NCBI GenBank assembly: GCA_041694835.1
Contig: JBGFRZ010000066.1
Location: forward strand, 1 to 30,981
DNA length: 30,981 nt
From: Ignavibacteria bacterium
GTDB lineage: Bacteria > Elusimicrobiota > Endomicrobiia > PHAN01
Reading direction: 5' to 3'
Shown here: piece by piece, positions 1,189-28,029 of the stretch
How the letters are laid out: the number at the start of each line of letters is the position of its first letter
Position numbering within the stretch: position 1 is the stretch's first letter
Notes under the pieces: generated by a model
The model's database searches: none
What the model saw: the letters and a program-made list of their open reading frames with translations, nothing else
Told to the model about the DNA's origin: nothing
Translations under genes and position numbers: made by a program

Positions 1189-1525
1189 ACTTTTCTTTCC
1201 CTTTTATTTTAACTAATATCTTTTTGGGAACACAGACTATCGACTCTCCCGACTTTGAAATCCATCCGACATGCTTACATGTCTGTTTCGGACAATCCGA
1301 CGAGAAAACACCGATTTTCCCGGATTTCACTTTTATCTTAAAATTTTCCCCGACATTAATCGCGGCATCTTTCGAGATATCGATATCACTCTCGGTTCCA
1401 TTTACAATTAAAATGGCCGAAGACGCTTTTTTGGACAAAAAACCTGACATCAAAAAAAGATAGCCTGATAATGCGAGTATAACCGATACTAACGCGAAAT
1501 CAAGGATGGTTAGCTTATTTTTCAT
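1169..1525 (-). CDS. NusG domain II-containing protein (DUF1312 / EetA-like), N-terminal membrane anchor
   Basis: N-terminal TM, then SDCPKQTCKHVGWISKSGESIVCVPKK, the typical CP..xC..GWI...IVC.P signature. Confidence 0.85.
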   Translation of the reverse strand: MKNKLTILDFALVSVILALSGYLFLMSGFLSKKASSAILIVNGTESDIDISKDAAINVGENFKIKVKSGKIGVFSSDCPKQTCKHVGWISKSGESIVCVPKKILVKIKGKEKYDAVSR

Positions 1526-2724
1526 TAGGACAGAGGGATTAAAACCGAAACAGCGGCTCCTTTTGATATCTTAACTTTTCCTTCAGGTATCTCGACAAGA
1601 CAATTTGATTTTGCCATAGACGTCAGAATGCCCGAACCCTGCTGTCCTGCAAGAACAACAAAATATTTTCCACTTTCGCTCTTCAGGAGCCCCCTCAAAA
1701 AATGACGTCTTTCATCGTTTTTATTGAAGTTGAATCCGGCTTTTGCGATGATTTTTATGTGCTCGTGTTTTCTCGCCGACATTTTATATATTGCCGGCTT
1801 TACAAAAAGTTCGAATGAAACAAGCGTGGAGACGGGATTGCCCGGCAGACTGAATACCATTTTGTCTTTAATGACGGCGAACGACGTGGGTCTTCCCGGC
1901 TTTATGGTTACCCCTTCAAACTTAAAGTCGGCGCCAATGGTTTTGAGGGCGTCCTTGACTATGTCGTAATCCCCCATTGACACACCGCCTGAACTTATTA
2001 TTATGTCGGCTTTTTTTAATCCTTTGCCGATCGCAGCGATGACATCGTTTTTTTTATCACTCAAATGACCCAACCAAACGGGAGACGCCCCCGCCGAATA
2101 TATGGCACCGATGAGGGAAGAATAATTCGAGTTAAAAATCTCCCCTCTTTTTAATTTTTTTGGAGGCAGTACGATTTCATTGCCGGTCGTGAAAAAACCT
2201 ATTTTTACCTTCTTGAAAACATCAACATAACTTTTTCCTACCGAGGTCAGCACTCCCATGACGGGGGGCGTTATAAGAACGCCTTTCGAAAAAACTTTGC
2301 TTCCCTTTTCGATATCTTCCCCTGCGAAGCGGACATTTTCCCACTTTCCCGCTGATTTTAATATCTTTACAAATCCACTCGGAAGCTCTCTTGAATTCTC
2401 GACCATAATCACGCAGTCCGCCCCATCGGGGAGAGCCGCTCCGGTCATGATTTTCGAACAAAAGCCTTTCTTGATTTTTTTAAGTGGAGTTTTTCCGGCG
2501 GGTATGATTTCAATTACTTGAAGCCTCGATGGAGTTTCTTTTATATCCGATGACCTGGCGGCATAACCGTCCATAGCCGAGTTGTTGAACGAAGGTATCG
2601 AAACGCGAGATTTTACATCGCGGGATAAAATACGGCCCAACGACTCTGTAATTCTTATATTCTCCGAGGCGGCTGTTTTTACGAAAGACAGAACCCCTTC
2701 CCGGGCTTTTTTAAAACCAATCAT
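1525..2724 (-). CDS. moeA: Molybdopterin molybdotransferase MoeA
   Basis: PSFNNSAMDGYA, IMTGAALPDGADCV, SGGVSMGDYD, KPGRP, LPGNPVS and QGSG motifs; 399 aa. Confidence 0.96.
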   Translation of the reverse strand: MIGFKKAREGVLSFVKTAASENIRITESLGRILSRDVKSRVSIPSFNNSAMDGYAARSSDIKETPSRLQVIEIIPAGKTPLKKIKKGFCSKIMTGAALPDGADCVIMVENSRELPSGFVKILKSAGKWENVRFAGEDIEKGSKVFSKGVLITPPVMGVLTSVGKSYVDVFKKVKIGFFTTGNEIVLPPKKLKRGEIFNSNYSSLIGAIYSAGASPVWLGHLSDKKNDVIAAIGKGLKKADIIISSGGVSMGDYDIVKDALKTIGADFKFEGVTIKPGRPTSFAVIKDKMVFSLPGNPVSTLVSFELFVKPAIYKMSARKHEHIKIIAKAGFNFNKNDERRHFLRGLLKSESGKYFVVLAGQQGSGILTSMAKSNCLVEIPEGKVKISKGAAVSVLIPLS

Positions 2725-2742: not shown

Positions 2743-2925
2743 TTAAATCACGTCTTCAGCACCGAGCGTTTTTTTACCGCCCTCACTTTTGACTTTATCA
2801 ATAGAGGCTTTTACCGATGATTCGACTTTTTCGGATAGTTTCTGAATATAGTCGGCACCAGTCCTATAACCAGCGTCCTTAACCATTTTCTTAACTTTGC
2901 TTACAACAACTATAATCTCTGCCAT
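2743..2925 (-). CDS. Bacterial histone-fold protein (Bd0055-like)
   Basis: 60 aa with MAEIIVVVSKVKKMVK...LSEKVE...KKTLGAED. This matches the single histone-fold pattern (VV.SKVK start, long alpha2, R/KKT...D end). A GGAGG Shine-Dalgarno lies 4 nt upstream of the ATG. Confidence 0.85.
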   Translation of the reverse strand: MAEIIVVVSKVKKMVKDAGYRTGADYIQKLSEKVESSVKASIDKVKSEGGKKTLGAEDVI

Positions 2926-3006
2926 AAAACCTCCGATATCGCGTCATGATTTTACCCCGGAATGTGTTAAATTTTCGCTGTCAGACGCATTATTTTTTTG
3001 TATTTT

Positions 3007-3182
3007 GAGCTCGTTGAAAAACCTTAATCTTTTGAACGATTTGGCAGTTTCAGGTTAAAAGTTGAAATCGTTTAGACCGCAATGTCTGACGAGCAAAGCG
3101 AGGAGTTTTGCGGTCTGATTGAAACTTTTAACCGTTAAGAAACTGCTCTTTAAGTGAAAAAGATGGGTTTTTCAATAATCTC
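3007..3182. mobile_element. 176-bp palindromic MITE, copy 1 (5-bp TSD ATTTT)
   Basis: Differs from 27836..28011 at only 2 positions. Imperfect terminal inverted repeats (GAGCTCGTTGAAAAACC / GGTTTTTCAATAATCTC) and nested internal IRs. ATTTT at 3002-3006 and 3183-3187. Confidence 0.9.
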
Positions 3183-3211
3183 ATTTTACAATTTTAACAC
3201 GCTCATGTCAA
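3183..3211 (-). promoter_or_regulatory. Putative sigma70 promoter for the histone-moeA operon
   Basis: Minus strand TTGACA (3211-3206), 17 nt spacer, TAAAAT (3188-3183). Confidence 0.65.
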
Positions 3212-19507: not shown

Positions 19508-19828
19508 TTATTTTTCAGGCTCTCTGCTTTTTTGGCTTAACTTTAATATAACTAATGCTGCAAGAATTATCGTAGTTATTTCGCTTATGATTGAGAGTTC
19601 TTCCCTTATATATCGGAGCCTGGCTCCGCAGTTGGTGCAATAGAATCTGGTCGGTGAGATTTTCCTTATTTCTTTGTGGCTGCAATTTTTTTTTCTGCTT
19701 TCGGCGATGTAGCCCCAGTAGTTTTTTTCTCTGTCTACAAACACCTTCCCCGTTAGACGGCCGAAAATATATCTCGCAAATTCGGCATAAGACTTCAACC
19801 TGTGAGACAGAAAAGCTAAAATATTCAT
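19508..19828 (-). CDS. Hypothetical 106-aa protein with CxH...CxxC motif and C-terminal TM
   Basis: Fills the rnpB-mraZ gap on the coding strand. Contains CSH-x12-CTNC and the hydrophobic tail IISEITTIILAALVILKL. Confidence 0.5.
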   Translation of the reverse strand: MNILAFLSHRLKSYAEFARYIFGRLTGKVFVDREKNYWGYIAESRKKNCSHKEIRKISPTRFYCTNCGARLRYIREELSIISEITTIILAALVILKLSQKSREPEK

Positions 19829-19841
19829 GACACAGAGCACT

Positions 19842-20296
19842 AGGCAGCCTATACCCCGGATTCTGTACTCCGATGTTAGAACCCGCCAAAAGCGGGAAAT
19901 GTCGGAGTGTGTATCATTACTCTGCCCCCGATGTCGCCATCGGGGTGAAGCGACCCACCTTTTTGGTCTTGCTCCCGGGTAAGGATTTAGCCGTTTCATC
20001 CCTGCATTACTGCAGGACTTTCCCCGATGTAACATCGGGGATGCTTAACCTTTCGGTCGAGCGCGTTTCTGTTCGCACCTCTATCCCACAACCTGCCTTT
20101 TTGCCAACAGGCAAAACTTTGTTTTCGAGGCGGGCGGTGGGATGGTGGGTGTTACCCACTACCTTTTCCCCACCACCTGTCTGTCGACCAAAGGTCGGCT
20201 TTGAAGTCGGCCCTTTCGAGCCAAAAACAGGTGGTGGGAATGGGAGTCCGGAATTTCCTCCCCGATGTAACATCGGGGCGATACACCGGCTGCCGA
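19842..20296 (-). ncRNA. rnpB: RNase P RNA (atypical architecture)
   Basis: Minus strand carries GAGGAAATTCCGGACTCC, AGGTGCGAACAGAAA, TGAAACGG..GGAGCAAG and ACAGAATCCGGGGTATAG. P1 is GGCAGCC/GGCTGCC and P2 is GTGTATC/GATACAC. Lies next to RNase H and zinc-ribbon genes. Confidence 0.92.
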
Positions 20297-25716: not shown

Positions 25717-26700
25717 TTATCCCTGCCCGACGGCAGGCGCAGGGCGATTTATTCTTCTAAAGCCCGAGCAATCTATCGTCTCGATCGCGCCAATTTTTTT
25801 TTCGATTTCGTCAAAAAGAAGGTTCAACCCCAGGTTATCGGAGGAGATATGACCGGCTATTATCGCGTTTATGTGATTTTCCTTCGCTTTCTTGAAATGC
25901 TCCTCGCTCATATGCATAGCTATTATGGTTCCGACACCCGATGTCTGAAGACTGGCAAACACATCTTTCGACCCCTCCGTTCCGCCTGTCATGTCCACAA
26001 AAATCTTCCCGGCCCGGGCTTCCTTATCGCCTATAAGAATAAACGGTCCGCCACCTTCCTTCTTTGCGAGTTCATATTCGGGAATTTTTACAAGCAAATC
26101 CAAGACATCGCCGAGACATTCAGGCATTTTTTCTTCAACTAGACCGCTCAAAAATGACGAAACCATGTTGTCAGCCGGAGTGTGAATACATAAAAACGGA
26201 ATATTCAAAAGTTTGGCCGCGTCCACCGCTCTTTGATGATTGGCGGGAGCCACCTTTCTTGAAACCTCGGCTTTGCGATCCAATGTCAGAGACTCCGAAA
26301 CGTTTATCGGAACGCCGACTTTGTTTAATATATCCGCCTGCATTCCCATGACTTCATAAAACCGGGCGTATGCCCGGCCTTCGGGATGATGACTTATCGC
26401 GGCGTCAATTCTCCTGCCACTTTGCCTGAGAGAGTGAGCAATCATAATTTCGGGTGATTCGATGTCAATGCCAACAATCACCGACTTCACAACATCGGCA
26501 TCATTTCCATTTAGTATTCTGGTGTCGGCATAAGGGTTTTCGAGTTTCTCCAAATCGTAATCGGATTTTTCCTTTTCCGGCAGGTTTTTATATTTCTCTA
26601 ACTCTCTTTTCAAAAGATTTCTGACCGTTCCTTCGCCCCTGGGATCGAACGAAATGCCAACTTCAACCATTTGTTTGTAGATTTCTTTTAGCGTGGCCAT
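25717..26700 (-). CDS. NIF3-like (NGG1p-interacting factor 3) metal-binding protein
   Basis: VGID, SHHPEG, HTPADN, DMTGGTEG, IAGHISSD motifs. Confidence 0.8.
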   Translation of the reverse strand: MATLKEIYKQMVEVGISFDPRGEGTVRNLLKRELEKYKNLPEKEKSDYDLEKLENPYADTRILNGNDADVVKSVIVGIDIESPEIMIAHSLRQSGRRIDAAISHHPEGRAYARFYEVMGMQADILNKVGVPINVSESLTLDRKAEVSRKVAPANHQRAVDAAKLLNIPFLCIHTPADNMVSSFLSGLVEEKMPECLGDVLDLLVKIPEYELAKKEGGGPFILIGDKEARAGKIFVDMTGGTEGSKDVFASLQTSGVGTIIAMHMSEEHFKKAKENHINAIIAGHISSDNLGLNLLFDEIEKKIGAIETIDCSGFRRINRPAPAVGQG

Positions 26701-27822: not shown

Positions 27823-27835
27823 AAATTTATATAAT

Positions 27836-28011
27836 GAGCTCGTTGAAAAACCTTAATCTTTTGAACGATTTGGCAGTTTTAGGTTAAAAGTTGAAATCGT
27901 TTAGACCGCAATGTCTGACGAGCAAAGCGAGGAGTTTTGCGGTCTGATTGAAACTTTTAACCGTTAAGAAACTGCCCTTTAAGTGAAAAAGATGGGTTTT
28001 TCAATAATCTC
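27836..28011. mobile_element. 176-bp palindromic MITE, copy 2 (5-bp TSD ATAAT)
   Basis: Near-identical to 3007..3182. ATAAT at 27831-27835 and 28012-28016. Confidence 0.9.
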
Positions 28012-28029
28012 ATAATACACATCTTATCT

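Follow-up and report, generated by a model that had tools for sequence, protein, structure and literature searches.

A further histone of the HBb/Bd0055 family in Elusimicrobiota, with altered loop residues and a mobile element in its putative promoter

Does a reading frame of only 60 codons in the 30,981-nucleotide stretch of DNA analysed here (the window) encode a bacterial histone, and what would such a protein do on the chromosome? The original prediction described a lysine-rich protein of 60 residues, preceded by a strong ribosome-binding site (RBS) and resembling the Bdellovibrio histone HBb (Bd0055). The translation is identical to the one quoted in that prediction and contains 11 Lys and 1 Arg vs. 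9 Asp and Glu residues, as counted from the translation. The gene and its RBS are located as follows.

2743..2925, minus strand, stop codon included (2746-2925 without it): histone gene, ATG start, 60 codons; singlet histone fold of the HBb/Bd0055 type, 'bacterial dimer', alpha3-truncated
2930..2934, minus strand: GGAGG, RBS of the histone gene, 4 nt 5' of the ATG, read from the sequence

At the position equivalent to this RBS, a relative from the same family (L022) has GAGGAGG. A search for homologues of the protein yielded 276 proteins at E<=1e-3, nearly all of them 59-61 amino acids long. In an alignment of 25 of the histone sequences, 21 columns are invariant, and the start codon and the length are conserved. 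Comparison with 19 loci from other genomes gave a pN of 0.15-0.26 against a pS of 0.63-0.97 per site (saturated), with pN far below pS in all 19. Because of these homologues, invariant columns and substitution patterns, the ORF is a real gene under purifying selection, well beyond a chance frame. Only one copy is present in the genome, which measures 1.9 Mb and has a completeness of 97%.

Searches of Pfam-A (2025 copy) and NCBIfam 20.0 with the ORF returned no family even at E<=10, and this includes PF00808 (CBFD_NFYB_HMF) of Pfam. Therefore, the family membership rests on matches in the PDB and on profile matches. Almost all relatives in the databases are unnamed or 'hypothetical' because the current Pfam and NCBIfam models miss this clade entirely, an annotation gap. 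Among the close homologues listed, those with a named source all belong to the Elusimicrobiota. One homologue carries the source label 'predicted lactoylglutathione lyase', and one of ten representatives of the relatives outside the Elusimicrobiota is labelled 'histone H3/H4'. More distant relatives include tandem doublets and fusions: P0123 has a signal-peptide-like N-terminus followed by two histone folds, in P0149 the fold is preceded by an unrelated N-terminal domain, and P0131 has an N-terminal extension of 220 residues.

With the single sequence, a match to HBb/Bd0055 (PDB 8fvx_A and 8cmp_A) was found at E 3.9e-07 over residues 1-60. The Bd0055 termini that the original prediction had given are those of chain 8fvx_A in this alignment. 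Two family profiles were also matched against the PDB, i.e., a clade profile of 25 sequences (A1) and a broader profile of 24 sequences (A2), with the following E-values.

HBb (8fvx, 8cmp): A1 1.4e-11 (47.4 bits); A2 4.6e-21 (78.1 bits)
HTkC (9f2c): A1 9.9e-07; A2 1.4e-16
HLp (9qt0): A1 1.3e-06; A2 6.9e-14
Methanopyrus (M.) kandleri histone (1f1e): A1 not listed at E<=1; A2 7.7e-07
HmvA (8bdk): A1 not listed at E<=1; A2 9e-06
HMfA and HMfB: A1 not listed at E<=1; A2 2.4e-04 and 3.4e-04, respectively
Eukaryotic H4 and NF-YB: A1 not listed at E<=1; A2 0.02-0.04 (weak)

Thus, HBb ranks first among the PDB chains with the single sequence as well as with either profile, which supports the assignment of the protein to the HBb/Bd0055 family of alpha3-truncated bacterial histones. 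The 'bacterial dimer' class was defined by sequence clustering, and an RKTxxxD motif was ascribed to its members, according to the accessible part of Schwab et al. (2024, PMC11390915). Members of the class are singlets of about 60 amino acids in which alpha2 is shortened and alpha3 comprises only 3-4 residues. This fits the protein, which ends two residues past the clamp Asp and has almost no alpha3 tail, as had been predicted. In the same portion of Schwab et al. (2024), the Elusimicrobiota are listed as one of the phyla in which 'bacterial dimer' histones occur; the phylum is also named for bacterial histones in the accessible text of Hu et al. (2024, PMC11317129). The gene, thus, adds an unannotated member to a family that is known, was described recently and was already reported in this phylum, and it is not a new discovery. 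Neither a characterisation of an Elusimicrobiota histone nor a mention of its Lys clamp or loop-1 Arg was found in the full-text literature searched, which covered main texts; supplements may show the two residues. [quoted passage not shown]

The AF2 model of the monomer (mean pLDDT 71.8) consists of helices 2-17 and 23-48, followed by coil without a long helix. The original prediction had proposed searches against HMfB and Bd0055 by profile and by structure. The profile half succeeded, with HBb as the best match and HMfB at 3.4e-04. The structural half was uninformative: Foldseek of the monomer against the PDB gave nothing at E<=0.001, with HLp (9qt0_A) at rank 9 and E 4.4, and in VIA-align, run on 48,161 chains, the monomer reached its highest Z (4.7) with helical proteins that are unrelated. 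This was to be expected since the monomer is half of an intertwined dimer. Judging from the model, fold searches with a 60-residue, two-helix monomer of this pLDDT are uninformative and provide no evidence against a histone fold. An antitoxin or ribbon-helix-helix protein was considered as well and was rejected: its resemblance is restricted to weak monomer matches (MazE and PrpA; Z 3.6-4.3), no toxin gene is adjacent, and the histone profile matches are strong.

The prediction of a handshake dimer fared better. A two-copy homodimer model scored 0.77 vs. 0.00 for the best of three controls. Of 30 proteins whose solved structures are same-chain pairs, 20 attained the mark that it passed, vs. 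1 of 23 whose solved structures are single chains (a rough yardstick, own alignment used). Contact agreement between the runs was at least 98%, and the pLDDT of the partner was at least 88. In the model, residues 34:34 and 7:7 are in contact at the dyad, alpha1 (residues 11, 14 and 15) lies against alpha2 of the partner (residues 38 and 42), and loop 1 (residues 20-23) pairs with loop 2 of the partner (residues 53-55). The contact with the lowest expected error is that of R21 with T53 and L54 of the other chain. These modelled contacts correspond to the histone handshake geometry, but the pass may reflect likeness to the solved HBb structure and is no independent proof. Full-length match to HBb, profile matches and dimer model all agree with a Bd0055-like bacterial histone, as originally proposed.

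The explanation we favor, and which we regard as probable, is that the protein is a small, basic nucleoid protein of the abundant type that forms a handshake dimer and organises DNA beside HU and IHF. Its basis is homology, conservation, purifying selection, distribution over the phylum and the dimer model, and from these we infer DNA binding, abundance and bending mode. Two chains, each consisting of one histone fold in which alpha2 is short and alpha3 almost absent, would clasp each other in a handshake, with the alpha2 helices crossing at residue 34 and each loop 1 pairing with loop 2 of the partner. The dimer would bind the DNA backbone without sequence preference. Contacts would be made by a Ser-Lys/Lys cluster in alpha1 (S9, K10, K12, K13, and K16) and by the paired loops, i.e., by R21 and T22 of one chain and K52 and T53 of the other. 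The DNA would be bent or coated, as by HBb, rather than wrapped in nucleosomes, and the protein would serve general chromosome organisation in Elusimicrobiota, alongside HU/IHF.

The residues that would mediate these contacts are in large part conserved. S9, K10, K12, K13, and K16 are invariant in all 25 aligned sequences; the alpha1 lysines and the S9-K10 motif are described in the available text of Hocher et al. (PMC10627809) and Schwab et al. (PMC11390915). The main DNA contacts of HBb are, in ranked order, N22, R57, S9, T53, T8, S24, K10, K12, K52, and K16, as given in the accessible part of Hu et al. (PMC11317129). Six of these ten residues are identical here in the alignment with HBb (S9, K10, K12, K16, K52, and T53), and these positions are invariant or nearly so in the clade. 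The other four are changed (N22 to R21, R57 to E57, T8 to Val, and S24 to Gly). They include both residues at the top of the ranking: N22 is replaced by an invariant Arg (R21), and R57 by Glu, a charge reversal. As four of the ten contacts are changed, including the top two, the binding geometry may differ from that of HBb.

The original prediction pointed at another difference, in loop 2, where it read KKT with an extra residue in place of the canonical RKT and considered the Arg-Asp clamp to be altered. The motif itself is present, and the additional residue relative to HBb is real; it corresponds to position 50, which varies in the clade (G, K, N, S, T, or D). It is no peculiarity of this gene, since K-K-T-x-x-x-E-D in loop 2 is the norm in the Elusimicrobiota clade, being found in all 120 close homologues among those listed, as is [YFLM]-R-T-G in loop 1. 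Likewise, Lys 51 does align with the clamp Arg of relatives (R51 of HBb), and D58 of the clamp is kept; this Arg-to-Lys change is a conservative one, and the two residues interchange within the subfamily. In three relatives, the extra residue is likewise present but stands before R-K-T, and Arg and Lys at the clamp position flip at least twice in a tree of 72 rows and 61 columns, many forks of which are unresolved. This tree was built with 20 of the 120 close homologues, i.e., every sixth, and with those representative domains that cover profile positions 8-48. The difference from HBb is larger at N22 and R57, which the original prediction missed, than in the KKT motif.

R21 aligns with an Arg of HTkC and of the archaeal histone 1f1e. 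In archaea, the 'sprocket arginine', R19 of HMfB, is held by T54, and it is not conserved in bacterial histones according to the available part of Hocher et al. (PMC10627809). In the Elusimicrobiota clade, however, an Arg is invariant at the corresponding place, and the contact between R21 and T53 in the dimer model matches the R19-T54 pair described for HMfB in that text. The residues in loop 1 and at position 57 were compared in 52 histone-fold domains from 43 proteins, i.e., the query and 42 of 49 library representatives, seven having been dropped for partial coverage.

Loop-1 Arg, 31 domains: position 57 is Arg/Lys in 0, His in 3, other in 28
Loop-1 Lys, 1 domain: position 57 is Arg/Lys in 0, His in 0, other in 1
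Loop 1 neither Arg nor Lys, 20 domains: position 57 is Arg/Lys in 15, His in 2, other in 3

Thus, a loop-1 Arg and an Arg or Lys at position 57 are mutually exclusive, with 0 of the 31 loop-1-Arg domains combining the two, and we infer that the positive charge at the composite DNA site formed by loop 1 and loop 2 sits on either one of the partners. The domains of the type that lacks the loop-1 Arg are largely from tandem doublets, and since most of them lie on one side of a single branch (support 99/94), the pattern reflects about one evolutionary split and not many independent events. Perhaps the Elusimicrobiota clade even constitutes a distinct DNA-binding subtype, in which the 'sprocket' Arg is kept, R57 is replaced by Glu and the clamp Arg by Lys, with a predicted grip on the minor groove; we put this forward only tentatively and consider it rather doubtful. 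If it were true, a minor-groove grip like that of archaeal histone dimers would be a third bacterial mode beside bending or coating by HBb and wrapping by HLp, and the clade would offer a natural test of the residues that set the DNA-binding mode.

The loop-1 Arg also bears on the oligomeric state because it is shared with HTkC and not with HBb. Together with the matches of both profiles to HTkC (9.9e-07 and 1.4e-16) and HLp (1.3e-06 and 6.9e-14), it is in line with another reading, i.e., a face-to-face (FtF) alpha3 histone like these two, which would form stable tetramers that wrap about 60 bp of DNA. The profile scores are, however, higher for HBb: 47.4 bits vs. 31.9/31.5 with A1 and 78.1 bits vs. 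63.8/55.2 with A2. Moreover, the residues that are conserved for the FtF tetramer in HLp, R49, N53, and R55 in the accessible portion of PMC12701072, map to K44, E48, and K51 in a gapless alignment; none of the three is identical, and position 48 varies in the clade. The Elusimicrobiota are also placed under 'bacterial dimers' in the available text of Schwab et al. (PMC11390915). Since the FtF residues are not kept and HBb scores higher, the dimer class is favored, and we consider an FtF tetramer unlikely. The original description of the protein as 'dimer-only' is plausible on the same ground, as the residues that hold the FtF tetramer together are not conserved.

A histone fold might also serve a role other than DNA organisation, as proposed for DUF1931, for example as a partner of the products of a neighbouring operon, and the genes around the histone deserve attention in this respect. 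In the window, the gene is followed by moeA.

1525..2724, minus strand: moeA (Pfam MoeA_N / MoCF_biosynth / MoeA_C), 18 nt downstream of the end of the histone gene

A scan for terminators in the interval between the two genes gave no match, and they are possibly co-transcribed; with 18 nt and no terminator match between them, an operon-linked role is still conceivable. The order LUD-histone-MoeA is also found in the same-family genome L022. ORFs were scanned from 18 of the 19 other loci. In seven of these 18, which are from other classes, the histone gene lies directly before a gene for Methyltransf_28 (MidA), and NuoA comes next in the two of the seven whose following ORF was scanned. NuoB is nearby in two further loci, and the remaining loci have MoeA, ribosomal protein S2, Rex or others. 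Thus, the neighbours vary between classes, which fits a general and not a pathway-specific role. Furthermore, neither NuoA (PF00507) nor MidA (PF02636) was matched in the 97%-complete genome studied here, and yet the histone is kept under purifying selection, which speaks against a function bound to the nuo operon. It is true that not all prokaryotic 'histones' need to organise genomes, as stated in the accessible part of Schwab et al. (PMC11390915), but the DUF1931 proteins are said, in the available part of the HLp paper, to lack DNA-contact residues such as those of HBb that are invariant or nearly so in this clade. A role without DNA organisation is, therefore, quite improbable. A DUF1931 pseudodimer, with two folds per chain, was rejected too: the protein has a single 60-aa fold, it keeps the DNA-contact residues, and it has no match to DUF1931 of Pfam. 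As for the label 'DUF1931' of entry 9qt0, this is what its depositors called HLp. Weakest of all is the idea that the ORF arose by chance or is a remnant without function, for which the very short length, the missing Pfam/NCBIfam match and the nearly always unnamed or 'hypothetical' relatives might speak, but which is already refuted by the conservation set out above, together with the strong RBS, and has practically no chance of being correct.

The preferred reading, a general DNA organiser, also has to accommodate the distribution of the gene over the phylum. With the clade profile, the histone was detected in 86 of 301 sampled Elusimicrobiota genomes (74 of 234 high-quality ones) and in 25 of 34 families. 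In two large families, with genomes of mostly 1-2 Mb, the survey found it in 0 of 89 and 0 of 88 genomes; hence, it is not indispensable phylum-wide. It is rare (2 of 22) in a third family, the three families without or poor in histone being f2, f20, and f24, whereas 83 of the 101 genomes outside these three have it. In ten Elusimicrobiota genomes, a second, distant match to the profile was seen (E 6e-7 to 9e-4; e.g., G078:C37:13556-13720), possibly a class of paralogues. HU/IHF genes were found in 288 of the 301 genomes, histone-negative families included, and the genome studied here has two; the coexistence of HU/IHF with bacterial histones has already been published. The histone locus is part of the core chromosome (dcw cluster, dnaG-rpoD, uvrB) with a uniform GC content. 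Two ORFs between well-known genes of the window gave no Pfam family at E<=1e-5.

19508-20035, minus strand: ORF of 175 aa, on the mraZ side
25717-26700, minus strand: ORF of 327 aa, on the dnaG side

The gap upstream of the histone gene is unusual. It measures 413 bp vs. 94 bp in the same-family relative L022, and it contains a putative promoter and a miniature element (MITE), a second copy of which is present elsewhere in the window.

3183..3211, minus strand: promoter match, TTGACA-17-TAAAAT, sigma-70-like, 11 of 12 positions; the junction with the MITE falls within the -10 box
3006..3183, no strand: MITE, 178-bp palindromic, between the promoter match and the histone gene, with a TTT duplication at 3003-3005 and 3184-3186
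27835..28012: MITE, second copy in the window

Promoter-like sites are not in excess in the region (two vs. a shuffle mean of 2.0), but the promoter match is supported by TTGACA-17-TAGAAT about 63 nt before the ATG in L022. The boundaries of the MITE were set from an alignment of seven copies. The genome contains 31 full-length copies with 89-100% identity and 15 partial ones, some of which are truncated because the contig ends there; several contigs end in the element. Identical AT-rich flanks of 3 bp are found in 30 of the 31 full-length copies (TAA in 11, TTA in 7, ATA in 5, TCA in 4, TTT in 2, and AGA in 1). The element was found in none of the 25 relatives searched, and no parent transposase was seen: the partial copies inspected are either at contig ends or lack an adjacent transposase-like ORF. 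The MITE was inserted within the A-run of the -10 box, and the hexamer is left unchanged by the insertion, since the first letter of the element on this strand is T. Without the element, the leader of the histone mRNA would be about 76 nt. As leader RNA, the MITE is predicted to fold with -61.3 kcal/mol (z -4.1), and none of 200 shuffled sequences was as stable. Thus, if this promoter is used, the histone mRNA would now carry a hairpin leader, while the histone gene itself is intact. A riboswitch or other leader RNA was rejected as an explanation of the upstream sequence, as there was no match in Rfam and the long hairpin is a repeated mobile element.

What these observations add is modest because the family was already reported in Elusimicrobiota: the residue pattern of the clade and the insertion of the MITE in the putative promoter add a little but amount to no discovery. 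As far as the literature was searched, in main texts, neither the combination of a loop-1 Arg with Glu at the position of R57 of HBb nor the promoter MITE is in print. Nevertheless, the histone emerges as a core, strongly constrained chromosome protein in most families of a phylum with few cultured members. The mechanism of HBb is disputed in the literature, with DNA bending and end-on filament formation as the opposing views, and a clade in which both top DNA-contact residues of HBb are naturally swapped provides a ready-made comparison. The MITE in the -10 box is likewise a small natural experiment on the tolerance of expression to a 178-nt hairpin leader.

Among the known systems, HBb of Bdellovibrio bacteriovorus, with the PDB entries 8fvx, 8fw7, 8cmp, 9ezz, and 9f0e, is the closest. 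The two proteins belong to the same length class, they align over their full length, both have a very short alpha3, and both coexist with HU/IHF. They also share an N-terminal hydrophobic stretch followed by S9-K10, K12, K13, and K16, as well as K52-T53 in loop 2 and D58 of the clamp. They differ, besides the contact residues discussed above, in loop 1, which is one residue shorter here, and in the clamp, where R51 of HBb is a Lys that is preceded by one extra, variable residue. With HLp of Leptospira perolatii (9qt0) and HTkC of Thermococcus kodakarensis (9f2c), the protein has the alpha3-truncated fold and an S-K-V-K motif in alpha1 in common and, in the case of HTkC, also the loop-1 Arg, in which it is unlike HBb. 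The relation to the archaeal histones HMfA, HMfB, and 1f1e is more distant: a profile is needed to pick up the common histone fold (2.4e-04 to 7.7e-07), and the [RK]-K-T...D motif in loop 2 is shared. In contrast to the archaeal nucleosomal histones, however, alpha2 is shorter and alpha3 is nearly absent, and there is, therefore, no counterpart of the four-helix-bundle contact of the archaeal tetramer, so that wrapping of DNA is not expected.
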